A program made the position numbers and the translations under genes. From NCBI GenBank assembly GCA_903921835.1, contig CAIXRL010000296.1, positions 1 through 41,058 on the forward strand: 41,058 nt of DNA, given 5' to 3'. This stretch comes from Candidatus Eiseniibacteriota bacterium. GTDB taxonomy: Bacteria > Eisenbacteria > RBG-16-71-46. This document shows, in pieces, positions 1 through 12,896 of this stretch (position 1 is the first letter of the stretch; every line of letters starts with the position of its first letter). The notes beneath the pieces were generated by a model. The model saw only the letters and a list, made by a program, of their open reading frames with translations, did not search any database and was not told where the DNA came from.

Positions 1-11
1 AGCCGAATTTC

Positions 12-539
12 GTGCGGATCGAATACACCGGGTCGGACCTCACCGACATCGATACATATGCGCTGAAAGTCGATCAGGACTGGCTGCCCGCGTGGTGGGA
101 TGCCGCGATGGTCGAAGACGTGACGCGCCGGATGCGCGCGCTGTGCGTGGCGTCGATCGTGCGGGAGCATCGCGCGATCCTCTGCGGCGGCGTGTGGGCT
201 GTCGGTGGAGCCGCCGTCGTTGATCGCGTGGTGTCGTCCCGGATCGTATCGGTCGGGGGCTCGGCGACCATCACGGACGTCGGGGGCAGCGCGACCATCA
301 CGGACGTCGGGGGCAGCGCGACCATCAGGGTCGTCGGGGGCAGCGCGACCATCACGAACGTCTGGGGCAGCGCGACCATCAGGGTCGTCGGGGGCAGCGC
401 GACCATCACGGACGTCCGGGGCAGCGCGACCATCAGGGTCGTCGGGGGCAGCGCGACCATCACGGACGTCGGGGGCAGCGCGACCATCAGGGACGATCAC
501 CGCGTGGCCGCCCAGAAGCGGGAAGGCGGTGCGAAGTGA
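12..539 (+). CDS. Hypothetical protein with C-terminal nonapeptide (VGGSATITD-like) tandem repeats; possibly 5'-truncated by the window edge
   Basis: GTG at 12, but the frame stays open back to base 3, so the gene may start upstream. Third-position GC is high. The C-terminal half is 9 in-frame copies of a 9-aa unit. The stop overlaps the next GTG (GTGA at 536-539). Confidence 0.55.
   Translation: MRIEYTGSDLTDIDTYALKVDQDWLPAWWDAAMVEDVTRRMRALCVASIVREHRAILCGGVWAVGGAAVVDRVVSSRIVSVGGSATITDVGGSATITDVGGSATIRVVGGSATITNVWGSATIRVVGGSATITDVRGSATIRVVGGSATITDVGGSATIRDDHRVAAQKREGGAK
252..494. repeat. Nine tandem copies of a 27-nt unit (gtcgggggcagcgcgaccatcacggac and variants)
   Basis: Read directly from the sequence. 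The period is exactly 27 nt (9 codons). Copies differ only at the last 2-3 codons (ITD / IRV / ITN) and at G/W/R in codon 2. Confidence 0.95.
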
Positions 540-602
540 CATTCGAGACCCTCAAGACCACCACGCCGCGCCGTCGAGCGCGCGATCAACAGGAGAGCGA
601 GG

Positions 603-758
603 ATGCCTGGTTACCTCACGTGCGTCGGCGGCGGCCTGCTCCTTATTGGCCTGGCGGCGAACCTGTGGCCGGCCGCGTGGTACGGCCTGGCGCTGTTCGG
701 AGCGGGGAGCCTGTGGGGCTGCCTCTCCCTGGCGCGGGGATCCAGGAGGAGGCCGTGA
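603..758 (+). CDS. Small hydrophobic (two-TM-like) protein, 51 aa, below the ORF-track length cutoff
   Basis: ATG at 603 is preceded by aggaga (about 8 nt upstream). Translation: MPGYLTCVGGGLLLIGLAANLWPAAWYGLALFGAGSLWGCLSLARGSRRRP. Third-position GC is about 85%, against about 65% for the overlapping listed frame (536..988). Confidence 0.45.
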   Translation: MPGYLTCVGGGLLLIGLAANLWPAAWYGLALFGAGSLWGCLSLARGSRRRP

Positions 759-988
759 TCGCACGAATGTTGGCCTGGTTGACGGGCGGCGAATGGGTGT
801 CGCCCGGGCATGTCTCGAGTGCGTGCTGTCGGCGGTGGGAAATGCGCGAGGGGCGGCAGGGCTGGACCGAGGCGCCTCGGTGGCGGACGCCTGCAGAGCT
901 GCGCGACATGCGACGCGAGGGCCGGCGCAGTGGCTTGCGCCTCGCCAGGACGAACGGCGCCACGAGCGCCAGCAGGAGGCTTGTGTGA
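755..988 (+). CDS. Hypothetical W/R-rich protein (77 aa)
   Basis: GTG at 755 overlaps the stop of the 603..758 ORF (GTGA). Its own stop overlaps the next GTG at 985 (GTGA). Third-position GC is high. No recognisable motif. Confidence 0.3.
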   Translation: MIARMLAWLTGGEWVSPGHVSSACCRRWEMREGRQGWTEAPRWRTPAELRDMRREGRRSGLRLARTNGATSASRRLV

Positions 989-2088
989 ACGACGAGACCG
1001 ACATGCTGACCGGCGAGGCTGAGCCGCCCGAAGAAGCGGACAGCGAGGCCGACGAGGGAATCGTGATGGATGGCGACCACGTGAAGGCCACTGTGTGCGA
1101 GGCGCTCGACAGCCTACACGGCCTCTACGTGCGGCGCGAGGACGACGACGACGCCCTGCCCAGCCTGAAGGGGCGCGCGCTGGCGAAGGCGGAGAAGGCG
1201 CTCGCGAAGGTCGGCGAGGAGATCGAAGCGGGCTGGACCTTCGTCTCAATGCGCATCCCGGATGACGCGGCGCTCCTGCGGCTGCGGTCCATCTTCGAGG
1301 CCGTGTTCCACGGCGACGGCGAGAAGACCTTCCCGGCGATGTACGACGAGGCGCTGACGCCTCCGGCCGAGCCCCTGCCCGAGTATCCGCGCTGCGGCTG
1401 CGGCGCCGCCCTGGTCCTGCCGGCAGAGCAGGCCGCGGGGAAGTGCGAAGCCTGCGCGCCCACTCTCAATGTGGAGGCCGGTGTCGCGGCGACAAGTGCC
1501 GACGCGACCACCGACGCACCTGGTGCAGCGCCGGCCTCCGCGCCCATAGACGTGCTGCTGCCGTTTCCACCAGCGCCCGTGCCTCCCTTCGATTTCCATG
1601 CCGCCTTCGTGGACATCGCGAAGAAGACGCGCGGCGTCGAGGCCTACCAGAAGACCTATCAGGAGCTGGCTGACCGGACGAAGGACGCAAAGAAGCAGTG
1701 GGAAGCGGCGGCGTCCAGTCTCACGCTCGCCATCACCGAATACGACCGCAAGGCGCGCGAGTCGGAGGAATACGCCGAGCGGCAGGAAAGGCTCCAGGCC
1801 GCCTACGTCGAGAAGCTCGAGGCGGAGGCCGCAGCCAAGGCGGCGCCGGAGCTGCCGCTCGACCAGTCGAGAGGGAAGGACGCGCAGAGCCGCGCGATGG
1901 CCGACGAGCGCGTGTCGGGTCCGGCGACCAAGAGCGGGCCCCTCCCGGAGGTGGACGCCAGCGCCTACCCGGAGGGGGCCACGCCGCTTCAGGATGCGCT
2001 CCCGACGTGCGGGCTCTGCGAGAACGTGCTGGCGCTCGACACCGAGAAGGACGCCGGGATCTGCGAAGGCTGCTCCGGGAAGGGATAG
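985..2088 (+). CDS. Hypothetical protein with two CxxC...CxxC zinc-ribbon-like motifs flanking a coiled-coil segment
   Basis: This is the C-terminal part of the listed 205..2088 ORF. GTG at 985 is coupled to the upstream stop; ATG at 1003 is an alternative start. Motifs: CGCG..x14..CEAC and CGLC..x15..CEGC. The central part is a K/E/A-rich heptad-like stretch. Confidence 0.55.
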   Translation: MNDETDMLTGEAEPPEEADSEADEGIVMDGDHVKATVCEALDSLHGLYVRREDDDDALPSLKGRALAKAEKALAKVGEEIEAGWTFVSMRIPDDAALLRLRSIFEAVFHGDGEKTFPAMYDEALTPPAEPLPEYPRCGCGAALVLPAEQAAGKCEACAPTLNVEAGVAATSADATTDAPGAAPASAPIDVLLPFPPAPVPPFDFHAAFVDIAKKTRGVEAYQKTYQELADRTKDAKKQWEAAASSLTLAITEYDRKARESEEYAERQERLQAAYVEKLEAEAAAKAAPELPLDQSRGKDAQSRAMADERVSGPATKSGPLPEVDASAYPEGATPLQDALPTCGLCENVLALDTEKDAGICEGCSGKG

Positions 2089-2115
2089 GGCGCCATGCGG
2101 AGCGAGACCGGGGTG

Positions 2116-2203
2116 GTCGGGGTAGCTCAATCGGTAGAGCAGACGCGCAGGAGGATTCGCCGATTGCGGGTCACTGATGCTGGCTCGACACCAGCCCCCG
2201 GCC
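2116..2203 (+). ncRNA. tRNA-like element: canonical acceptor stem, D-arm and T-arm, but an expanded, non-canonical anticodon region
   Basis: Acceptor GTCGGGG (2116-2122) pairs with CCCCGGC (2196-2202), including one G-U pair. T8 and A9 are present. D-arm is GCTC-AATCGGTA-GAGC. T-arm is GCTGG-CTCGACA-CCAGC. There are 37 nt between position 26 and the T-stem where about 22 are expected, and I could not fold a 5-bp stem with a 7-nt loop there. Confidence 0.5.
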
Positions 2204-2475
2204 ACCCCTCGTGATGGATGCGGGCCGAAACGAGTAAGCGCCTCACGGCCATCGGAGTAGGCCCACTCACAGGCGGAATCAGGCTGCGGCGTGGCGAGTT
2301 GACACGCGGGAAGGGCGGAAACAAGCGCCCCTGGAAGTTCCGGGCATCAGCACAATCTGCGCCTTGTGGGTCCGGCAGTTGGGTCACGCCAACTGGGCGC
2401 GGCCCAGGGAGAAGCGAGAAGCGCACTGATGCCATAGCCAGGACGTGCGGACACTGGCCAGCCTGAGCGTAGGAC

Positions 2476-3609
2476 ATGACAGACCAGTCAGTAGGAGGAA
2501 CCGTGGCAGACCAACAGATCGACACCGCCCTCGCGCCGGCACAGCCCAGCACGATGGCTCCGCGCAACGAGGTGCTCATGGGGTCGTCGCCGACGACCCT
2601 CGACCAGGCAATCGCGCTCGCCACCGTGATGGCGAAGAGCACCCTGGTCCCGAAGGATTTTCAGAACCAGCCGGCGAACATCGTCATCGCCGTGCAGCTC
2701 GGGGCCGAGCTCGGGCTCGCGCCGATGCAGAGCCTGCAGTCGATCGCCGTCATCAACGGCCGGCCCTCGGTGTGGGGCGACGGGCTGCTCGGCCTGGTCA
2801 TGCGCTCCGGGCTCCTCGAGGACATCAACGAGCCGGAGGTCGGCGACGACATGGTCGCGACCTGCACCGTGCTGCGCAAGGGCTGGAGTCATCCGGTCAC
2901 GCGCGCGTTCACGAAGAAGGACGCCGAGAAGGCGGGCCTGTGGGGCAAGGCCGGGCCCTGGCAGACGTACCCGAGGCGCATGCTGCAGATGCGCGCCAGG
3001 ACGTTTGCCTTGCGCGACGTGTTTGCCGACGTACTCCGTGGTCTCACGTCGATCGAAGAAGCGAGCGACATCCAGGTCCCGTTCGACGAAGTGACGGGCG
3101 AGATCCTCCCTCGTACGGCCGTTCAGGCCAGAGTCATCGAAATGCCGCGGGCCAAGGGCGAGGCGAAGCCGGCCGCGGTGGAGACGTCGAGCGCCTCGCC
3201 TGCTGCGCCCCCGACCCCCGCGGCCGCCCCACGCCCGGCCGCCCCTGCCGCTACGACGCCGGCTCCTGCCCAGACGCACGGAGGCTCCGCGCCATCGGCC
3301 CATGTCTCCAGCCAGGCGCCACAGGCCGCGCCCTCCGCGCCTGCCGCTGCGCTGCAGGCGGGGACGCACGTCATCAAGAGCGTCGTCGAGCGGAAGTCGG
3401 CGTCCGGACGGGTCTACTACCTCGTGACCACGCAGGCCGGCCTGGTGGCCCACACCTGGTCGTCCACGGTCGCCGGTGAAGCGGGCCAGGCGAAGACGGA
3501 CGGCTGCCCGGTGCGCCTGGTTGGGAAAGACACGACGTTTGCGTCGGCCCCGCTGCAGATTACGAAGGTCGAGCGCGCCGAGCGTGAACCGGGCGATGAG
3601 GCGTTCTGA
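2476..3609 (+). CDS. recT: RecT-family single-strand annealing recombinase with a P/A-rich linker and an extra C-terminal domain
   Basis: The N-terminal ~200 aa show RecT hallmarks (LVPKDFQNQPANIVIAVQLGAELGLAPMQSLQSIAVINGRPSVWGD...KAGPWQTYPRRMLQMRARTFALRD). This is followed by about 90 aa of PA-rich low complexity and a ~90-aa C-terminal domain. Confidence 0.85.
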   Translation: MTDQSVGGTVADQQIDTALAPAQPSTMAPRNEVLMGSSPTTLDQAIALATVMAKSTLVPKDFQNQPANIVIAVQLGAELGLAPMQSLQSIAVINGRPSVWGDGLLGLVMRSGLLEDINEPEVGDDMVATCTVLRKGWSHPVTRAFTKKDAEKAGLWGKAGPWQTYPRRMLQMRARTFALRDVFADVLRGLTSIEEASDIQVPFDEVTGEILPRTAVQARVIEMPRAKGEAKPAAVETSSASPAAPPTPAAAPRPAAPAATTPAPAQTHGGSAPSAHVSSQAPQAAPSAPAAALQAGTHVIKSVVERKSASGRVYYLVTTQAGLVAHTWSSTVAGEAGQAKTDGCPVRLVGKDTTFASAPLQITKVERAEREPGDEAF

Positions 3610-3610
3610 C

Positions 3611-3868
3611 ATGGCCCGCGACCGCAAATACCACGTGAAGGTCCGCACGCACGGCGAGCCCTGGCAGACCACCTGGTCGGGACCTGGCGAGGCCGTGGCG
3701 ACGGAGGCGGCGCGTGCGCTGTTTCGCGAGACGCGCGCCGCCTGGGATAGCGAGAGTGGGATCGTGACGGCTCGGGTCACACTGCCCGTCCATCCGTATG
3801 TGCGCGTGGTCTGCGGTGGGGTGAACGTGCTCGACCTCGGGCCGAAAGACCGAAAGCGCGCGTCATGA
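3611..3868 (+). CDS. Hypothetical protein (85 aa)
   Basis: ATG at 3611, 2 nt after the RecT stop. It is the in-frame C-terminal part of listed ORF 3476..3868. Confidence 0.5.
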   Translation: MARDRKYHVKVRTHGEPWQTTWSGPGEAVATEAARALFRETRAAWDSESGIVTARVTLPVHPYVRVVCGGVNVLDLGPKDRKRAS

Positions 3869-3987
3869 GGACCGCGCGATCACTCGCCGCCCTCGTCCTC
3901 GGCGTGACGGTCGTCCTGCCGCTGCTGCTCGTGGCGCGCTGGGTACTCCGCCCGCAGGTCGAGCGTCGGCCGATGCGCTGGAGGTGA
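3865..3987 (+). CDS. Small single-TM protein (40 aa), below the ORF-track cutoff
   Basis: ATGA overlap with the upstream stop. Translation: MRTARSLAALVLGVTVVLPLLLVARWVLRPQVERRPMRWR. The stop lies 4 nt before the next ATG (3992). Confidence 0.35.
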   Translation: MRTARSLAALVLGVTVVLPLLLVARWVLRPQVERRPMRWR

Positions 3988-3991
3988 CGCC

Positions 3992-4315
3992 ATGACGCAG
4001 GCGCACTTGCCGTTCGGCGGAAAGTCGGCGACCGCTCGCGCCTGCTCCATGAAGGCGGCAAACGATGCGGCCAGGACGCGCGGCGTGAAGTCCGCCCTGG
4101 TCTTGCGCATGCTCGCCGAATCCGGCGCCAGAGGCCTCACTCGGCACGACCTCGAGGCCATCACCGGCTACCGCACATCGTCGTTGTGTTCCATCGTCGA
4201 TACCCTCGTAAGCGCGGCGTTCGTCGCCGAACACGGCTCGCGTCCGTCCGGGCCGTGGATGAAGGACTGCACGATCTACGTCCGCACCAGACACCAGGAA
4301 GGCAGGGTCGCGTGA
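3992..4315 (+). CDS. Putative winged-helix DNA-binding protein
   Basis: The segment ALVLRMLAESGARGLTRHDLEAITGYRTSSLCSIVDTLVSAAFV resembles a MarR/wHTH recognition region. This is a motif-level call only. Confidence 0.5.
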   Translation: MTQAHLPFGGKSATARACSMKAANDAARTRGVKSALVLRMLAESGARGLTRHDLEAITGYRTSSLCSIVDTLVSAAFVAEHGSRPSGPWMKDCTIYVRTRHQEGRVA

Positions 4316-4554
4316 ACACGCAGCCTCGGACGATCCGCATCTTCGAGAACGGCGCCGGCACGCGCAAGCGCGGGCCCGGCGTCTGCCGGTCATGTGGTAC
4401 GCGCATCTTCTGGTGCGAGACCGCCAACGGGAAGCCGATCGCGTTTGACGAGGTGCCAGAAGTCATCACGACGGATGGGCGCCTCGAAACCGTGTCCACT
4501 GAAGGTGTTCACTTCTCGACGTGTCCGCAGGCTCGCGAGTGGAGCCGGAAGTGA
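4312..4554 (+). CDS. Small zinc-ribbon-like protein (80 aa)
   Basis: GTGA overlap at 4312-4315. Motif: CRSCGTRIFWC...HFSTCP. Confidence 0.55.
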   Translation: MNTQPRTIRIFENGAGTRKRGPGVCRSCGTRIFWCETANGKPIAFDEVPEVITTDGRLETVSTEGVHFSTCPQAREWSRK

Positions 4555-4766
4555 CACCGCTTCCTCGCCCCGGGCATCCGCACTGGCGCGTGCAGACCAA
4601 AGAGACGCCGTCGGCCTCAGCCTGGACGACGCGCCAGCATCGCGCCGTGGAACCGCCAGAGCCGTTCTACGGGGTGTCGGGCCATGCCTGGTCAGCTCTC
4701 GCGTTGGCCGTGGCCGTGGCGGACCAGGCGGAGTGTTCGGACGACGAGGGCTTGAGGGGGACGTAA
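4551..4766 (+). CDS. Hypothetical protein (71 aa)
   Basis: GTGA overlap at 4551-4554 and TAATG overlap at its 3' end. No motif recognised. Confidence 0.35.
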   Translation: MTPLPRPGHPHWRVQTKETPSASAWTTRQHRAVEPPEPFYGVSGHAWSALALAVAVADQAECSDDEGLRGT

Positions 4767-5065
4767 TGGCTGAGGTGACGGAGCAAGATCGGCAGTGGGC
4801 AAGAAGCCTGCTGACATACGTGAGACCGGAAGCAGCAATCGCGGACGCCCTTGCCGCATCCCGCGCCGAGCGGGACGGTCTGGACGGTCTTTTGGCCCTG
4901 CTGGCACGGTGCGTGCCTGCCGTCAATGGGGACATAGGGGAGTGGCAGAAAATCGTGGATGACCCTCCGGTCTCGGCGGCTGGTCCTGCGGTGGCTCGAC
5001 AGCGGATCGCGGAAGGGAAGGCGCTGCTGGCCGACATCGACCGGGCGCTGGGAGGGAAGAAATGA
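4766..5065 (+). CDS. Hypothetical protein (99 aa)
   Basis: ATG at 4766 (TAATG junction). It is the in-frame tail of listed ORF 4394..5065, whose N-terminal part is R/S-rich shadow-like sequence. Confidence 0.5.
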   Translation: MAEVTEQDRQWARSLLTYVRPEAAIADALAASRAERDGLDGLLALLARCVPAVNGDIGEWQKIVDDPPVSAAGPAVARQRIAEGKALLADIDRALGGKK

Positions 5066-5472
5066 CTAGCCGCGCTGACTGTGGATGTGTCTACGACATG
5101 GGCGTGCGCATGGTGCCGTGCCCGACCCACATCTCGGAGCATCGAGGGAATATCTGCCAGACTACCTGCCTGGACTGCGCCACACGACAGGCCGAGATCG
5201 AACGACTGACCGCTAAACTGGTCGCAGCGGTGGCCACAATCGAGGACTACAAGTCGGCTGGTCAGACAGTGCGCGATGACTGCGCCCAAGAGGCACTCGC
5301 GGAAGCGCAGGTCTGCGGCTGCGGACAGCGCATCGCGGAACGCATCAGGACGGTCAAGGGCAAGGGCTTCAGCGTCGCCAACGCGTGCCCGAGATGCCGA
5401 GGATGGCTGCCATGTGGCTGCGGCTACTACCCAGCCGCGCCGAGCCTGCAGGACCAGCCCGATGCCGAATAG
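5062..5472 (+). CDS. Cysteine-rich hypothetical protein (136 aa, 14 Cys)
   Basis: ATGA overlap at 5062-5065. Multiple CxC/CxxC pairs are present (CGC, CPTH, CLDC, CGCG, CPRC, CGCG). Confidence 0.55.
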   Translation: MTSRADCGCVYDMGVRMVPCPTHISEHRGNICQTTCLDCATRQAEIERLTAKLVAAVATIEDYKSAGQTVRDDCAQEALAEAQVCGCGQRIAERIRTVKGKGFSVANACPRCRGWLPCGCGYYPAAPSLQDQPDAE

Positions 5473-5662
5473 CCGCCACGTCACGCGCCACGCCAGGCAC
5501 GCGCCGCTCAGCGTCTGCTCAGGCAGCGGGCAGACCGCGCCGCACGAGACCATGTGCTACACCGCGCAGCACTGTCCGCTGTGTGACGCCCTGGCGCGCG
5601 TGCGGGAGCTCCAGGTCGGGCAGGGGCGACGGTGCGAGGCGTGCCGGAAGAAGGACGCATGA
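5462..5662 (+). CDS. Small zinc-ribbon-like protein (66 aa; alternative start 5552 gives 36 aa)
   Basis: CPLC...x16...CEAC motif. The stop overlaps the ATG of the next gene (ATGA at 5659-5662). The start is uncertain. Confidence 0.35.
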   Translation: MPNSRHVTRHARHAPLSVCSGSGQTAPHETMCYTAQHCPLCDALARVRELQVGQGRRCEACRKKDA

Positions 5663-6285
5663 CGATCTCGTTCGACGTCGCGACGCACACCTACCGCGAC
5701 GAGTCCGGTAGACGCCTGCCGTCTGTGACGCAGATTCTCGGCGCCGTCCCGCCCTGGCTCGGCCGCTTCGATCTGGTCCCAGCGGACACCCTGGAATACA
5801 AGCGCCAACTCGGGACCGCCGTCCACCACGCGACCGCGCTGCACGACCAGGGCGTCCTCGATTACGACACGCTGGATGACGCGATCCGGCCGTACCTCGA
5901 CGCCTGGTGCCTCTATCGCGCCGAAACAGGCTTCGTCCCGACCGTCATCGAGCAGATCGTGCATCACCCGACACTCGGCTATTGCGGCACCCTGGACCGC
6001 ATCGGGCGGACACCAACCGCGGTGGTGCTCTTGGACGTGAAATCGGCCGACCCGTCCAGCGGCTACCTATCTGGCCCACAGACGGCGGCCTATCTCTGCG
6101 CCTATCTCGCCTGTACGCCCAATCACGGCCTCCCGGCGCGCGTCCAGCGCTGCTCCGTCCACCTGGCCGGCGATGGGCGCTACCGCATCGTCCCTCATAC
6201 GAACCGGCGCGACCTCGACGTGTTCAAGGCCGCGCTCGAACTGTGGAACTTCTCATCCCCTGAACGGAGGATCTCTCGTGCCTGA
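5659..6285 (+). CDS. PD-(D/E)XK (RecB/Cas4-like, YqaJ-type) phage exonuclease
   Basis: Motifs: HTYRDESGRRLPSVTQIL at the N-terminus, GTLD...VVLLDVKS (the D...D-x-K core) and QTAAY near the C-terminus. It sits in the same module as RecT. Confidence 0.75.
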   Translation: MTISFDVATHTYRDESGRRLPSVTQILGAVPPWLGRFDLVPADTLEYKRQLGTAVHHATALHDQGVLDYDTLDDAIRPYLDAWCLYRAETGFVPTVIEQIVHHPTLGYCGTLDRIGRTPTAVVLLDVKSADPSSGYLSGPQTAAYLCAYLACTPNHGLPARVQRCSVHLAGDGRYRIVPHTNRRDLDVFKAALELWNFSSPERRISRA

Positions 6286-7327
6286 TTTTCAGACCATGCA
6301 GACCTTGGCGCGCTCGATGGCGCACTCAATGGGCGTCGTCCTGGAGGACGGCCCGCCCGAACCCAGCCACGATGGCCCCGAGATGCCGCCCGAGCCAGAC
6401 GAGGACATCCCCGAGGAGCCGCCACAGGAGGCGCAGGAGGCCCGCGTCCTGGTGCCCGATGAAGTGCTCGACCCCGAGGCACTGATTCCTACCGCGCTCA
6501 TCGTGGCGAAGCTGGAGGGCATCACGGCGGCGGACGTCGCGAAGTCGGTCATGCTCGCCGAACGCGCGATCCGCGTCGGCCTCATCACCACGGACGCCCA
6601 GCAGACGGACCTCGACGAGCTGCGCGACGCGCTCAAGGCGCACCAAGCCGACATTGAGGCACGCCTCACCCCATACTGCGACGTTGCTTACAAGCTGCAC
6701 AAGGCCCTGACTGGCCTGCGCGCATCGGCGCTCGGGAGGGTGCCGGACGCCGTGAAGCACGCCGGGAACGTCCTGGCGGTCTACATGCGCCAGAAGGCGG
6801 AGGCGGAAGCCGCACGGCAACGGGCCGAACGCGCGAAGGCGCTCGCGGAAGAACGGGCACGTTTGAAGGCGGAAGCGGACGCGGCAGAACTCGAGCGCCA
6901 GCGTCTGGCCGTCGAAGCCGAGCAGGCGCGCCAGGTGGGCGACGAGGACACGGCACAGGCGCTCCTTGCCCAGGCAGACATCGAAGCGACGACCGCCGCA
7001 CAGGCGCGCCAGGAGGCCATCTACGCGACCGCGCCGGCCGTCGCCGCCCAGGACATCATGAAGCCTGACGGCGCATCCGCGGCTGACGCCTGGCAGGCCC
7101 TCCCGGCGCACGCCGAAGACCGGGACGACATGCCGCTGGCGGACAAAACGGCGCTCATCATCTTCGTCGGCGAGCGTCTCTCAGCCAACGATGGGAGCTT
7201 CATTCACCTCCTGTCGGTGGACTGGAAGGCGGCGAAAGCGTTGGCGAAAGCGCAGAAGAGCACGATGCGCGTACCGGGGCTGCGCGCTGTGAATCCGCCC
7301 ACCTATCGCAAAACGACAAGGGGATAG
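6278..7327 (+). CDS. Coiled-coil protein of unknown function (possible recombination accessory protein)
   Basis: GTG at 6278 follows ggagga (ATG at 6296 is an alternative start). It has an acidic N-terminus and a long A/E/R-rich coiled coil. I cannot assign a family without a search. Confidence 0.6.
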   Translation: MPDFQTMQTLARSMAHSMGVVLEDGPPEPSHDGPEMPPEPDEDIPEEPPQEAQEARVLVPDEVLDPEALIPTALIVAKLEGITAADVAKSVMLAERAIRVGLITTDAQQTDLDELRDALKAHQADIEARLTPYCDVAYKLHKALTGLRASALGRVPDAVKHAGNVLAVYMRQKAEAEAARQRAERAKALAEERARLKAEADAAELERQRLAVEAEQARQVGDEDTAQALLAQADIEATTAAQARQEAIYATAPAVAAQDIMKPDGASAADAWQALPAHAEDRDDMPLADKTALIIFVGERLSANDGSFIHLLSVDWKAAKALAKAQKSTMRVPGLRAVNPPTYRKTTRG

Positions 7328-7333
7328 CGAGCC

Positions 7334-8314
7334 ATGTGGGCGAAGATTGACGACGGCACGCCGGACCATCCAAAGCTCTGCGAGGCAGGCGAGCACCTGG
7401 GCGGAGAGGACGCCACCATCGTGGCGTTCGGCTTCTGGGCCAAGGGCCTCTGCTACGCCAATAAGCACCTGACGGACGGGTTCCTTCCGTTGGCCATGGT
7501 CCGCACGTGGTCTGACCGAGCGGTCAAGATTGCAGCGGCACTGGTGGCGGCGCGACTGTGGGACAAGGCTTCCGGTGGATTCAAGATTCACGACTATCAC
7601 GACCACAACCCTCATGCTGACGAGGTGCGCACAAGGAAGGAACAGGACCGAATTCGGAAAGAAAACGAACGACGAAAGAAGCTGGGTCTCCCTCCACCTG
7701 AGGATTGTCCGCCCGGAATCCAAGCGGAATCCGAGCGGAATCCAGCCGGACACATGTCGGACACGTCCGAGGATTGTCCGCCCGGAATCCAAGCGGAATC
7801 CGAGCGGAATCCAGAGCCTCGCGCGCCCGCGGGACGCGCCCGCGGGACGCGCCCGCATCCCGTCCCGTCCCGTCCCGTCCCGTCCCCCTCTGACACAGAG
7901 CGACAGCCAGCCCCGCAACAGCCGGCGGGGGGCGCCCCACGCGCTGGCGTGGCGTGGGCGGGACGACCGTCTGTGCCGCGATCGCTCCACGCCGAGTTCA
8001 TCAGCAAACTCGGGGGGCACCTAGAACACGCCGAGCAAGAGTTGCTCGAATGGTATCCCAGGGCGGCTGAGGCGTTCGGGTACACCGCCATCGGCGACGA
8101 CGACTTCAGGTTCTGGCGCGCCCGCTTCCGGGAGTGGGTCGGCACGACCGTCGCTCCGATCAACGGCAGCAAGCGCACGGCCGAGCAGTCGTCGTCGGAC
8201 GCGGACACGGGTGACTGGTTCGCCGAGTGTCAGCGGCTACACCAGGGCGCGTGCAATGGCAAGCTCGGGCACAGGACGCAGATGGTGATCGACGCGGTGA
8301 GGGCACACACGTGA
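7334..8314 (+). CDS. Putative replication organizer/initiator-like protein with a repeat-rich central linker
   Basis: It lies between the recombination genes and RusA. The N-terminal domain reads MWAKIDDGTPDHPKL...ANKHLTDGFLPLAMV. The central region is built from DNA direct repeats (see the repeat features). The function is inferred from context. Confidence 0.5.
   Translation: MWAKIDDGTPDHPKLCEAGEHLGGEDATIVAFGFWAKGLCYANKHLTDGFLPLAMVRTWSDRAVKIAAALVAARLWDKASGGFKIHDYHDHNPHADEVRTRKEQDRIRKENERRKKLGLPPPEDCPPGIQAESERNPAGHMSDTSEDCPPGIQAESERNPEPRAPAGRARGTRPHPVPSRPVPSPSDTERQPAPQQPAGGAPRAGVAWAGRPSVPRSLHAEFISKLGGHLEHAEQELLEWYPRAAEAFGYTAIGDDDFRFWRARFREWVGTTVAPINGSKRTAEQSSSDADTGDWFAECQRLHQGACNGKLGHRTQMVIDAVRAHT
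7700..7814. repeat. Two 46-nt direct repeats 69 nt apart, each holding three CGGAATCC motifs at 11-bp spacing (six in total)
   Basis: CGGAATCC occurs at 7714, 7725, 7736, 7783, 7794 and 7805. Copy 1 (7700-7745) and copy 2 (7769-7814) are identical as far as I can read. Confidence 0.9.
7823..7856. repeat. 2.6 copies of a 13-nt unit GCGCCCGCGGGAC (each containing the palindrome CCCGCGGG)
   Basis: Read directly from the sequence: 7823-7835, 7836-7848, and a partial copy at 7849-7856. Confidence 0.9.
7859..7883. repeat. (CCCGT)x5 pentanucleotide microsatellite inside a coding region
   Basis: Read directly from the sequence. Because the unit length is not a multiple of 3, gain or loss of a copy would shift the reading frame. 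Confidence 0.9.
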
Positions 8315-8841
8315 CCCTCGAGTTCTTCGCCGCCGGCAAGCCGGAGCCGCAGGGCAGCTCGAAGGGCTTCGTCATCACGGACAAGCGCACCGGCAAGCAG
8401 CGCGCGATCGTCACGAGCGACAACGCGAAGCTGAAACCATGGCGCTGGTCGGTGCAGCTCGCCGCGCGCCTGGCGATGGAGCGGGCCGGGCTGGGAGGGC
8501 AGATGATTGTGGGCAGCCCCGTGCATATCGAGGCGCGGTTCCTGATGCCTGCACCGTTGTGGGCACAGGCGAAGCAGAAGCGTGGAAAGGTCGTGGCGTG
8601 CATCGTGCGCCCCGACGTGGATAAGCTCGCACGCGGCCTCATGGATGCGCTCACCGGCATCGTGCTCCAGGACGACAGCCTGGTCGTCGACCTGCACCCC
8701 ACCAAGCGCTACGCAGTCGGCGTCGAAGAGCCCGGTGTGCATGTGCTCGTCGCGAGCCACCAGCCAGAGACCGCCGCGGTCGCCGTGTCGCCGCCGCTCG
8801 ACGAGGACCCGCCGGAACCAAGCGAGGAGGCGACATGGTGA
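8311..8841 (+). CDS. rusA: RusA-family Holliday junction resolvase
   Basis: GTGA overlap at 8311-8314. Motifs: GKPEPQGSSKG..., the RPDVDKLARGLMDALTGIVLQDDSLVVDLHPTKRY core typical of RusA, and an acidic/Pro-rich tail. Confidence 0.85.
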   Translation: MTLEFFAAGKPEPQGSSKGFVITDKRTGKQRAIVTSDNAKLKPWRWSVQLAARLAMERAGLGGQMIVGSPVHIEARFLMPAPLWAQAKQKRGKVVACIVRPDVDKLARGLMDALTGIVLQDDSLVVDLHPTKRYAVGVEEPGVHVLVASHQPETAAVAVSPPLDEDPPEPSEEATW

Positions 8842-9338
8842 CGCATCGCACACGGCTCGCGAGTCAGACAGTACTCGTGCCAACCGAGGCGACAGGGGAC
8901 CCTGGAAGGTCGCGACGGACAGCGGGAGCACGGGCGCGCAGGAAACGGCCAGGTTTCAGCCTCTCCATGGGGGTAATGGCCACCCAGGATGGCTTGGTCC
9001 TGACCGTCGAGGCGCCCATGGCGCCCACTGGCGCGGCCCCGATCGACTCGGACTACTACGCGCTGCCGCCCGCCGAGCGTCACAGCTGGCTCTGGGAGAC
9101 GATGGACCCACACGCCGACCTGCTCGTGACGGACCAAGGCGTCGAGTTGGTCGCGGCCTACCGTCGTTTAGGTGGTCGCTGCGGCCTCTGCGGAGAGCCT
9201 GTCGACCTTGCGATCAAGCGCGGGCCGACCCAGGCGACGCTGGATCATATCGTGCCGCAGAGTCTCGGCGGGGGATGCGAACGGTCGAACCTGCAACTGG
9301 CGCACCGCGGATGCAATTCGAGGAAAGGGAACCGCTAG
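8835..9338 (+). CDS. HNH endonuclease
   Basis: The C-terminal motif is CGLCGEPV...ATLDHIVPQSLGG...NLQLAHRGCNSRKGN. The start is uncertain (ATG at 8835 or ATG at 8967). It lies directly upstream of the terminase genes. Confidence 0.8.
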   Translation: MVTHRTRLASQTVLVPTEATGDPGRSRRTAGARARRKRPGFSLSMGVMATQDGLVLTVEAPMAPTGAAPIDSDYYALPPAERHSWLWETMDPHADLLVTDQGVELVAAYRRLGGRCGLCGEPVDLAIKRGPTQATLDHIVPQSLGGGCERSNLQLAHRGCNSRKGNR

Positions 9339-9931
9339 TGAGCACGACGGCGACGGGATCCGCACGACGACGGCTGAAGCCGGCGCTGCTCACTCGGCGC
9401 GAGCTCGCCGCGCTGCTCCACGTGGTCCCGATGACGATCACGAAGTGGGAACAGGCGGGGATGCCGATCGCGACGCGTGGTCGGAAGGGCAAGCCGTCGC
9501 GTTATCGGGAGACGGTCGTGCGGTCGTGGCTCCAGCAGCGAGAGGAGGACGCTCAGCGGCCCGGGTCGGTCACGGACGTGGCCAAAGAAAAGGCGAGGCT
9601 CGCCAGAGAACAGGCCGACCTCACGCTACAGACGCGCATGATGCGCGCGCGGGATCTCTTGCCCCGCGAAGAGGTCGAACGCGCGTGGACCGCAGAGGTC
9701 GCCGCGGTGCGCGCGAAGCTGCTGGCGTGGCCGGCGACGCTCGCCGACCAGGTGCACCGGGCGGCCGTGCTCGACGGCCTGGGCGGCGTCGAGCGCGTGC
9801 TCAATGAGGCCATCCGGAACGTGCTGCGCGAGTTGGCCCATGCGAAGGCGAGCACGCCGGAGTCGGAGGCAGAACCGACCGACCTCTTGACTGTCCAGCC
9901 TACTGCGCCACCTGCCGAGGTGTTTGCGTGA
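9338..9931 (+). CDS. Terminase small subunit (Nu1-like, N-terminal HTH)
   Basis: GTG at 9338 overlaps the HNH stop. LTRRELAALLHVVPMTITKWEQAGMPI...GKPSRYRETVVRSWL resembles the Nu1-type HTH. It is followed by a coiled coil and lies directly upstream of, and coupled (GTGA) to, the large terminase. Confidence 0.7.
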   Translation: MSTTATGSARRRLKPALLTRRELAALLHVVPMTITKWEQAGMPIATRGRKGKPSRYRETVVRSWLQQREEDAQRPGSVTDVAKEKARLAREQADLTLQTRMMRARDLLPREEVERAWTAEVAAVRAKLLAWPATLADQVHRAAVLDGLGGVERVLNEAIRNVLRELAHAKASTPESEAEPTDLLTVQPTAPPAEVFA

Positions 9932-11805
9932 CCACGACCCAGGCGCTTCTTCGCACCGTTCGAAAGGGCTGGCTTCCGCCGCCAGACCTGAACGTCTCGA
10001 CGTTCGCCGACCAAGAACTCGTCGTGACGACAGGCCCGCTCGCCGGCACGCACTGGCAGACCGCGTTCGCGCCGTATCAGCGCGGGATCCTGGATGCGTT
10101 CCACAAACCAGGCGTTGAGATCGCCGTGGTGATGGGCAGCTCGCAGTGGGGCAAGACGAGCTGCGCGGTGTGCGTCGTCGCCTTCCACGTCGCGCACGAT
10201 CCGTGCCCCATCCTGATCGTGGAGCCGACCGTGGACCCGATGGCGAAGGACTTCGCAAAGAATCGCCTCGACCCGGTCATCGCGGCGAGCCCCTTGCTGC
10301 GCGAGACCGTGTCGAAGAGGCGCGCGAAGGATGCCAGCAACACGACGCTGGCAAAGACGTTCCGCGGCGGGTCGCTCTCGATCGGCGGCGCGAATTCTGC
10401 GGCATCACTCGCCGCCCGGTCCATCCGGTTGCTCGTGCTCGACGAGGTTGATCGGTATCCGCCTGAGTTACCTGGGGAAGGATCAACACTCGCGATCGCG
10501 TTCAAGCGGACCGCGGCCTATCGGCGGCGCCGACGAATCCTGATGCTCTCATCCCCCACGCTGAAAGGCGCGCCGATCGACGTGTGGTTTCATCGCGGCG
10601 ACCAGCGGCGCTACCACGTCCCGTGCCCGTCGTGCGGCGTGATGCACCCGTTCCAGTGGAAGCAGGTCCACTGGACGCACGACGATCCGGCGACGGCGCG
10701 GCTGCACTGCCCAGCCTGCGACTACACGATCGACGATGCGGAGCGCGTGGCCATCCTCGCGCACGGCCAATGGATTCCGGACTGCCCGGAACGCGCTGAC
10801 AAGTCGGTCGTGTCGTTTCACGTTTGGGAGGCGTATTCACCGCTCTCCTCCCTGGCCGAAATCGTGACGTCGTTCCTGCGGGCTCGAGTGGCTCAGAAGG
10901 CCGGGGATCGGAGCGAGATGCACACCTGGCAGAACACGACACTCGGCGAGCCGATCGAACTGGACCAGGGCGATGGCGTCGAGCCGCACGTGCTGCTGAT
11001 GCGGCGCGAAGCCTACAGTGAGGGCGTCGACATTCCAGACGGCGGTTGCGTCCTGACGATGGGCGTGGACACCCAGGACGACCGCCTCGAGGCACTCGTG
11101 ATCGCCTGGGGGCCAGGGGAGGAATCCTGGATTGTCGACCGACAGACGCTCCCCGGCGATCCGGAAGGCCCGGAGCCGTGGACGATGCTCGACGAGCTGC
11201 TGGTGCGTGAATACCGGCACGCGCTCGGGTTCAGGCTGGCGATCCGTGCGACCTGCGTCGACTCGGCCGGGCACCGCACGACGTTCGTGTACGACTACGC
11301 CAGGCGTAAGGCTGCGCGCCGCGTCTTTGCGATCATCGGCCGCGACGGGCAGCGCCCGATCGTCTCGTCGCCGTCTCCACGGCGCTGGGGGCGCGAACAA
11401 CGCGAGGTGCCGCTCTACACGATTGGGACCGACGCGGCGAAGTCACTGATCGTCTCGCGGCTCTCGTTGACGGAGAAGGGCCCGGGTTTCGTCCATATGC
11501 CTCATGCCGAGTGGGCGGACGAGGAACTCGCGGCGCAGCTCACGAGCGAGCGGCTCGTGACGGTGTGGTCGAAGGGGATTCCCTCGCAGGTCTGGCGGAA
11601 GGTGCGGCCGCGAAATGAAATGCTCGACGCGTTCGTCTACGCGGTGGGCGCGCTCAGGCTGATCCACCCGAATCTGCCGGTGGTCGCGGCGCAGCTCGCG
11701 GCGATGGCTGGGACCGCCACGGTGCAGCCACTCCCACGCCAGGCTGCGCCGTCGCCGCCCCCGCAATCGCGGCGCATCGCGCGCAGTGGGTATCTCGGGC
11801 GATAA
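9928..11805 (+). CDS. Terminase large subunit, lambda gpA family
   Basis: 625 aa. It has a Walker A-like SSQWGKTS and LLVLDEVDRYP, and the overall gpA-type layout including the CPSCG...CPAC zinc motif. Confidence 0.93.
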   Translation: MTTTQALLRTVRKGWLPPPDLNVSTFADQELVVTTGPLAGTHWQTAFAPYQRGILDAFHKPGVEIAVVMGSSQWGKTSCAVCVVAFHVAHDPCPILIVEPTVDPMAKDFAKNRLDPVIAASPLLRETVSKRRAKDASNTTLAKTFRGGSLSIGGANSAASLAARSIRLLVLDEVDRYPPELPGEGSTLAIAFKRTAAYRRRRRILMLSSPTLKGAPIDVWFHRGDQRRYHVPCPSCGVMHPFQWKQVHWTHDDPATARLHCPACDYTIDDAERVAILAHGQWIPDCPERADKSVVSFHVWEAYSPLSSLAEIVTSFLRARVAQKAGDRSEMHTWQNTTLGEPIELDQGDGVEPHVLLMRREAYSEGVDIPDGGCVLTMGVDTQDDRLEALVIAWGPGEESWIVDRQTLPGDPEGPEPWTMLDELLVREYRHALGFRLAIRATCVDSAGHRTTFVYDYARRKAARRVFAIIGRDGQRPIVSSPSPRRWGREQREVPLYTIGTDAAKSLIVSRLSLTEKGPGFVHMPHAEWADEELAAQLTSERLVTVWSKGIPSQVWRKVRPRNEMLDAFVYAVGALRLIHPNLPVVAAQLAAMAGTATVQPLPRQAAPSPPPQSRRIARSGYLGR

Positions 11806-12317: not shown

Positions 12318-12896
12318 GTGCCTGGTCTCGACATTGCGCGCGCGGAGGCGATCACGGGCTGGATGAGTCCTGGCGAGCTGACCTGGCTCGCCGCGCACGC
12401 CCTCGGCACGCGCACTATCATCGAAATTGGGGCCTTCTGCGGTCGGTCCACGCGAGCGCTCGCCGATCACTGCCCGGGCGTGGTCTATGCGGTGGACCCG
12501 TGGGAAGGCTACGCGAACGACGACGGTAGCCAGGCGAAGTGGATCCTCGAGCAAGGTCCCGGGAGTTGGGTCGCGATCGTCGAGGCGTTCAATCGCAACC
12601 TCGCCGACCACATCGCGTCGGGGCGCGTCGTGCCGGTGCGTCTGCGAGCCTTCGACGCCTACCCAAAGATCAGCGTGCAGCAGTCCTTCCGCGCAGACCT
12701 CGTGTTCGTGGATGGGGACCACCGCTACGAAGCGTGCAAGCAGGACATCCAGCTCTATCGAGACCTCGTCGCGCCGGGTGGCGTGCTCGCGGGCCACGAC
12801 TACGGCAGGAACGACTGGCCGGGCGTCAAGCGCGCGGTCGACGAGCTGCTCGGAAAGGTCAACCACCGCGAGTCAATCTGGTGGATGCGGCGATAA
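12318..12896 (+). CDS. Class I SAM-dependent methyltransferase (O-methyltransferase/Methyltransf_24-like)
   Basis: IIEIGAFCGRST (motif I) and LVFVDGDHRYEACKQDI...GGVLAGHDY are typical of this fold. Confidence 0.8.
   Translation: MPGLDIARAEAITGWMSPGELTWLAAHALGTRTIIEIGAFCGRSTRALADHCPGVVYAVDPWEGYANDDGSQAKWILEQGPGSWVAIVEAFNRNLADHIASGRVVPVRLRAFDAYPKISVQQSFRADLVFVDGDHRYEACKQDIQLYRDLVAPGGVLAGHDYGRNDWPGVKRAVDELLGKVNHRESIWWMRR

Follow-up and report, generated by a model that had tools for sequence, protein, structure and literature searches.

The locus considered here raises the question of what a tRNA-shaped sequence with no recognizable anticodon arm is, and what it might do, between two genes of a phage early region. 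The window, i.e., the whole stretch of DNA that was analyzed, is one complete 41-kb contig (C296) of a MAG of 4.7 Mb, which comprises 850 contigs and is 80% complete. Judged from its genes, the contig is phage-like, encoding a RecT-family annealing protein, a replication initiator, and terminase subunits. The element and the genes identified around it, namely its upstream neighbor, recT, and those for replication and the terminase, are all on the + strand, and the proteins encoded next to the element had no informative family or PDB match. The RpoB protein of the MAG (contig C353) was nearest to those of Eisenbacteria/Thermoanaerobaculia-type MAGs, with about 72% identity to named ones, whereas the relatives of the window's RecT were mostly from proteobacterial prophages. 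Therefore, the binning of this phage contig with the MAG may not reflect its host, and the host assignment is uncertain.

The element lies in a gap that the initial annotation had described as non-coding from 2089 to 2475. It was found that GC3 periodicity, which is 0.9 to 1.0 in the flanking genes, collapses over about 2110 to 2470, and this loss supports the assignment of the gap as non-coding. The gap probably reaches 2502, because the alignment with the closest relative's RecT begins at the GTG at 2503, just 3′ of an AGGAGGA (2493 to 2499), which makes this GTG a more likely recT start than the ATG at 2476. The portion of the gap downstream of the element had fold z-scores of −0.67 (+ strand) and −1.31 (− strand), amounting to no structure signal, and neither promoter- or terminator-like sites nor an Rfam match was found in the gap. 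The surroundings of the element are as follows.

2209 to 2502, + strand: remainder of the non-coding gap, with no significant structure and no recognized element
2476 to 3609, + strand: listed open reading frame of the RecT-family annealing protein, likely start GTG 2503
7334 to 8314, + strand: replication initiator
8582 to 11805, + strand: small and large terminase subunits

Because the element is on the strand that encodes the phage early operon, it is probably transcribed within the early mRNA.

Structure and tRNA ancestry of the element

The tRNA core spans 2116 to 2202 (+), upstream of recT, and 21 nt separate the stop codon of the upstream gene from the element, the parts of which are given below.

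2102 to 2105, + strand: outer extension of the closing stalk, GCGA, 4 bp, pairing with 2209 to 2212 after a 4-nt 5′ bulge (2106 to 2109); weak, from RNAfold of the whole gap
2110 to 2122, + strand: 5′ strand of the 13-bp closing helix, GGGGTGGTCGGGG, from the inverted repeat and the folds
2110 to 2115, + strand: 5′ strand of the extra 6-bp stalk, within the 13-bp helix 2110 to 2122/2196 to 2208
2116 to 2122, + strand: acceptor 5′ strand GTCGGGG (positions 1 to 7), 7/7 pairs with 2196 to 2202, one of them T-G
2123 to 2124, + strand: T8 and A9
2125 to 2140, + strand: D arm GCTC / AATCGGTA / GAGC, 4/4 stem pairs, with A14, G18G19, and A21
2141, + strand: A26
2142 to 2178, + strand: anticodon region, 37 nt up to the T arm
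2142 to 2172, + strand: extended hairpin ("rod") replacing the anticodon arm, predicted by RNAfold, without a 7-nt anticodon loop
2173 to 2178, + strand: variable region ACTGAT, 6 nt
2179 to 2195, + strand: T arm GCTGG / CTCGACA / CCAGC, 5/5 pairs, with G53, C54, T55, C56, G57, A58, and C61
2196 to 2208, + strand: 3′ strand of the closing helix, CCCCGGCCACCCC, in which CCCCGGC (2196 to 2202) is the acceptor 3′ strand

All 16 of the 16 stem pairs and 11 of the 12 conserved core positions are intact. The description of everything outside the anticodon arm as textbook thus held for the acceptor (7/7), D (4/4), and T (5/5) stems and for the core nucleotides, but not for T-loop position 54, which is C in the element and T in all of the 34 core-matching MAG tRNAs. 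In addition, T2178 could form a 15:48 Levitt pair with A2130. CCA is not encoded at the 3′ end of the element, and the MAG tRNAs listed end in CCA. The 7-bp acceptor stem reported at first is present but does not stop there: the helix runs on for 6 more pairs to 13 bp, an extension longer than that of any of the 49 evaluable MAG tRNAs (maximum 5).

When the sequence was re-cut, the earlier count of 37 nt between position 26 and the T stem was reproduced. Within it, the initial annotation had recognized a 7-bp stem with one G-G mismatch enclosing a 17-nt loop; we recovered the stem, but the loop pairs on (A-U, G-U, a tandem GA/GA, and two G-C pairs), leaving only AUUCG. In the RNAfold prediction the rod therefore consists, from its base, of 3 bp, the G-G mismatch, 5 bp, the tandem GA/GA, 2 bp, and the 5-nt loop AUUCG. 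Several other features of this region were considered and set aside. A 16-codon open reading frame from the TTG at 2164, 3′ of an AGGAGG, was judged to be due to chance because the AGGAGG is buried in the helix; the likeness of the rod strands to the acceptor stem of tRNA-Lys was not significant once multiple comparisons were allowed for; and a likeness of the loop (GGATTCGCC) to an origin iteron, CGGAATCC, was not accompanied by any enrichment in the gap.

The minimum-free-energy fold given by RNAfold was the cloverleaf, at −44 kcal/mol (z = −2.7). The ensemble probability of the cloverleaf was 0.81 for the element, compared to a best value of 0.49 and a median of 0.15 for 51 tRNAs of the MAG, only 39% of which fold as a cloverleaf in this calculation. 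The minimum free energy of the rod, −13.7 kcal/mol, was in the lowest 4% both of shuffled sequences and of 31-mers from the window (p about 0.04). Because the rod and the stalk both add helix, these departures from a tRNA are not those that random decay predicts.

To evaluate the tRNA ancestry of the element, we used a strict core pattern comprising a 7/7 acceptor stem, T8, and a 4/4 D stem with A14, GG, and A21, followed on the T side by a 5/5 stem with G53, T55, C56, R57, A58, and C61, and allowing any spacing of 21 to 48 nt between position 26 and the T stem. On both strands of the MAG (9.4 Mb) there were 28 matches, 27 of which had the normal spacing of 21 to 22 nt; the only oddly spaced match, at 37 nt, was the element itself. 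There were no matches in 600 simulated windows. The D arm is identical to that of the MAG tRNA-Lys(UUU) at 18 of 19 bases and has 23- to 27-nt matches to annotated phage tRNA-Trp, tRNA-Cys, and tRNA-Asn genes, and the exact 17-nt T arm of the element is also the T arm of a phage tRNA-Tyr (locus L138) and a phage tRNA-Gln (locus L144) called by ARAGORN. Because the core pattern is beyond chance and both the D arm and the T arm match real tRNA genes, descent of the element from a tRNA gene is strongly supported by sequence comparison.

The two phage genes that share the T arm, tRNA-Tyr-GUA at 1521 to 1607 (−) of L138 and tRNA-Gln-UUG at 475 to 549 (+) of L144, are in tRNA arrays on AT-rich IMG/VR contigs, and both have C54. 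Therefore, C54 alone does not disqualify a phage tRNA.

We also looked for a decoding tRNA in this sequence. ARAGORN at default settings found no tRNA or tmRNA in the window, Rfam gave nothing at the gathering score and no tRNA match at E ≤ 10 (551 nt), and none of the 43 matches listed for RF00005 across the whole MAG is on this contig. No single contiguous deletion, of any position or length, restored a 5-bp stem and 7-nt loop with U33 and R37, the best outcome being 4 of 5 anticodon stem pairs without U33, and a search of the 37 nt by hand found no 5-bp stem with a 7-nt loop containing U33. The possibility that software would reveal a standard anticodon loop missed by eye was thus not borne out by default ARAGORN, Rfam, or the deletion search. 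It had also been proposed that a spurious element would fail covariance scoring and match no tRNA family; the element does fail the Rfam tRNA model, but its core is far beyond chance. The analysis shows a cloverleaf of tRNA origin that lies on the coding strand and is unable to decode. A tmRNA was rejected as well, since ARAGORN -m and Rfam found none and the element has a complete D arm but lacks a G3-U70 pair.

Relatives and gene order at the recT locus

No homologue of the element was found by BLAST against 50,697 phage records, by pattern scans of IMG/VR and a metagenome collection, or in related RecT, TerL (terminase), and upstream-gene loci. A covariance model of the element matched nothing but ordinary tRNAs in about 0.75 Mb of loci (the window with 68 loci, making 69 sources, two upstream-gene loci, and 16 further loci) and in 102 genomes of the order, where the lone 45-bit match was a tRNA-Lys(UUU). 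A 19-mer match in locus L146 is within coding sequence and was rejected as a chance match. On this evidence the element is a real but isolated curiosity with a putative function and no relatives found, and its main value as it stands is as a documented single, unconserved case.

The closest RecT (66% identity, loci L007/L009) begins 33 nt after its upstream gene, and in the closest relative the homologue of the window's upstream gene is directly followed by other genes. In the RecT relatives P0004, P0034, P0012, and P0003 (the last from the gene table only), recT overlaps the preceding gene; in P0001, P0004, P0034, and P0012, recT is at most 33 nt after the upstream gene or overlaps it. A recT-adjacent gap like that of the window was therefore absent from all five RecT relatives inspected (P0001, P0003, P0004, P0012, and P0034).

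Comparison of the early region (1 to 7330) with L007/L009 showed that genes have changed place. In L007, an exonuclease gene and a gene encoding 345 amino acids are upstream of recT, and a gene encoding 284 amino acids is far downstream; in the window, the 284-amino acid homologue precedes the gap, and the exonuclease and 345-amino acid genes are downstream of recT. Because the gene order differs in this way, the element is at a synteny breakpoint.

In locus L086, from a prophage of a Desulfuromonas MAG, a canonical tRNA-Arg(UCU) gene (2060 to 2136) was observed among small same-strand open reading frames about 800 nt upstream of recT. Its presence in that early operon indicates that phage tRNA genes do occur in the neighborhood of recT.

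Possible roles and known tRNA-like RNAs

The reading that we prefer, although we give it somewhat less than an even chance, is that of a non-decoding cloverleaf, derived from a tRNA and carried in the early transcript as an RNase-processed module. The tRNA body, namely the stack of the acceptor and T arms and the elbow formed by the D-loop and T-loop, has been kept, with the anticodon arm turned into a rod-like hairpin and the acceptor helix lengthened to a 13-bp stalk. Host RNA-processing enzymes would then handle the element as a structured module, the candidate cutters being RNase III in the stalk, or RNase P and 3′ tRNA-end nucleases at the tRNA-like ends. Such a cut would separate recT from the upstream gene in the early transcript and free a stable, non-decoding RNA of about 90 to 100 nt.

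The intact stems, the ensemble probability of 0.81, and the fact that both departures from a tRNA add helix point to a structure that is maintained rather than decaying. Against a processed module are the lack of any homologue, and hence of support from conservation or covariation, and the five RecT relatives without such a gap; moreover, a gene-order breakpoint is a place where junk can persist. The manner of processing also has constraints. A fully paired leader and trailer are unfavorable for RNase P and RNase Z, and a 13-bp stalk is short for RNase III. Because the paired flanks oppose simple entry by RNase P or RNase Z, the live options are cleavage of the stalk by RNase III or no processing.

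Small structured RNAs and stalks that host RNase P or RNase III cuts from longer phage transcripts are familiar from the T4 species 1 and 2 RNAs, the C4 RNAs of P1/P7, the CI RNAs of P4, and the RNase III sites of T7. Processing of these RNAs is documented, as is function for some of them, but the element has no sequence or Rfam similarity to any. Compared to a canonical, phage-borne class I tRNA (RF00005), the element has the same 7-bp acceptor stem, T8, D arm (A14/G18G19/A21), and T arm (G53/T55/C56/A58/C61), and differs in that a 31-nt rod takes the place of the anticodon stem-loop, position 54 is C, the variable loop has 6 nt, CCA is lacking, and the closing helix extends to 13 bp.

A closer parallel in proposed action is provided by the t-elements of plant mitochondria, non-canonical tRNA-like cloverleaves located between or beside genes in mRNA precursors, where they direct cuts by RNase P and RNase Z (PMC1920247). 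The processed-module reading would give the element the same role of a cis signal for tRNA-processing nucleases. For the element, sequence and fold show a cloverleaf in a same-strand intergenic position, and its place within a polycistronic transcript is putative; t-elements, however, are organellar and have mapped transcript ends, whereas the element is from a phage, is known from its sequence, and has a paired leader and trailer. If functional, the element would be a bacterial-virus counterpart of the t-elements, and it would be a further hint that phages put the tRNA body to uses other than decoding, in forms missed by standard tRNA finders and Rfam.

Y RNAs were also compared. Like the element, YrlA and Yrn1 do not decode, their D and T arms resemble those of tRNAs, and their 5′ and 3′ ends pair in a long stem; some Y RNAs are phage-encoded. 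The arm order of Yrn1 is that of the element, whereas YrlA is permuted (T arm, acceptor-like hairpin, D arm), and in Mycobacterium smegmatis RNase P cleaves the tRNA-like domain of YrlA, to which CCA is added (PMC4201824). Assignment of the element as a Y RNA was rejected, as there is no Ro60/TROVE gene (PF05731) in the MAG and no Rfam match, and the GNCGAAN0-1G motif is absent from the sequence read (2089 to 2125).

The strongest competitor of the processed-module reading, and one that we consider nearly as likely, is that the element is an inert relic without function, i.e., a phage tRNA gene whose anticodon arm was destroyed by a recent local rearrangement at a module junction. This would fit with the element being a singleton that is absent from all relatives examined and with its position at the synteny breakpoint, where the exonuclease and 345-amino acid genes have moved from one side of recT to the other relative to L007. 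The C54, the 6-nt variable loop, and the missing CCA are compatible with degeneration, and canonical tRNA genes, such as the tRNA-Arg(UCU) of L086, occur in early operons near recT. However, decay would be expected to disrupt pairing, yet no stem pair is broken and what has changed adds helix; none of the genuine MAG tRNAs has so well defined a fold; no single indel accounts for the arm; and the C54 T arm is present in apparently working phage tRNAs. Of the proposals of the initial annotation, those of a phage tRNA, decayed or derived, and of a tRNA-mimic RNA remain; tRNA ancestry is strongly supported, but neither proposal is singled out.

The second of these, a trans-acting tRNA mimic that would bind or titrate a tRNA-recognizing factor such as a host anticodon nuclease or another tRNA-targeting defense, or a modification or processing enzyme, seems improbable to us. 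The elbow and acceptor features are preserved, while the loop that anticodon nucleases cut is missing; among host sequences, the element is most similar to tRNA-Lys(UUU); and phage tRNAs are known to counter tRNA-cleaving defenses (PMC10264068, PMC11464382). The likeness to tRNA-Lys nevertheless does not extend beyond generic sequence of the D arm and T stem, neither a partner gene nor conservation supports the role, and the known cases are decoding tRNAs rather than anticodon-less ones. A decoy role in trans is therefore possible but unsupported. We regard as similarly doubtful the more general proposal that the element belongs to an undescribed, sequence-diverse class of anticodon-less, stalk-closed, tRNA-shaped RNAs of phage early operons, which would be excised and act in trans as tRNA decoys, for example toward tRNA-targeting defenses or tRNA-binding enzymes.

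Attachment-site, intron, and chance readings

Less favored than any of the above, and in our view very unlikely, is a tRNA-derived attachment or recombination site, either an attP or a fossil attL/attR, as had been suggested at first. Sequences derived from tRNA genes are common at phage att sites, and the rod amounts to an imperfect inverted repeat of 9 bp; its two arms, however, are 13 nt apart, too far for a tyrosine-recombinase core. The att scenario had led to the suggestion that the 5′ and 3′ halves might both match one host tRNA. When the element and its halves were searched by BLAST against the MAG (which is 80% complete and whose assignment as the host is uncertain) and the element was compared with 54 MAG tRNAs, the longest match was 19 nt of the D arm, that of tRNA-Lys(UUU) given above, and no MAG tRNA shared more than this generic arm. 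Furthermore, the element retains both halves of a tRNA and not just a 3′ fragment, it sits inside an early operon, and none of the 15 integrase matches (PF00589) in the MAG is on this contig.

Weak or partial RF00005 matches were observed elsewhere in the MAG, at C757:12346-12456 (−), C684:894-967, and C685:804-866. One of the three consists of a T arm, acceptor 3′ strand, and CCA with no proper 5′ half, and the other two, tRNA-like pieces no more than about 120 nt away from integrase genes, are likely att-type fragments.

A working tRNA with an intervening sequence, also raised by the initial annotation as a tRNA with a mini-insertion or intron, is just as hard to sustain. Its only basis is that ARAGORN at relaxed settings (-ps, -i) calls a tRNA-Leu(CAG) in which the variable arm is long and the intron is 8 nt. 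No such call was made at default settings, the anticodon stem required contains an A-A mismatch as well as a G-U pair, the D arm of the element is of the class I type, the Rfam tRNA model gave no match at E ≤ 10, and no deletion restores an anticodon arm. No route for the removal of an 8-nt tRNA intron is known in bacteria. The relaxed settings are also unspecific, producing about 11 extra calls in 352 kb of related phage DNA (approximately 1 per 30 kb) and a second call in the window, a "tRNA-Ala(CGC) with 2-nt intron" at 12518 to 12610, which we took as a false positive and used as a control. The tRNA-Leu(CAG) call was rejected for this lack of specificity, and we caution that relaxed tRNA-finder calls are unreliable here.

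Finally, although GC-rich sequence folds easily, the reading of the element as a chance fold in GC-rich DNA is effectively refuted by the absence of the core pattern from the simulated windows and from all other non-tRNA sequence of the MAG.

Irregular tRNA-like sequences were also seen in other phages. Streptomyces phage Blueeyedbeauty (NC_048720.1; 595 to 745 of locus L147, about 65987 to 66137 of the genome) has an unannotated sequence resembling a tRNA 5′ half, GTCGTGG TA GCTC AATGGGTA GAGC, between its annotated tRNA-Ile and tRNA-Ser genes, followed about 100 nt later by a T-arm-like CCGG-TTCGACT-CCGG without a matching acceptor 3′ strand. Three unrelated phage contigs have tRNA cores with over-long anticodon regions (40 to 66 nt, as opposed to 21 to 22 nt), at 1629 to 1720 and 1891 to 1981 (−) of L013, 6749 to 6864 (−) of L011, and 3010 to 3122 (−) of L014. 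Default ARAGORN misses or mis-sizes these cores, one of which resembles a tRNA-Tyr(GUA) into which about 20 nt have been inserted 3′ of position 37.
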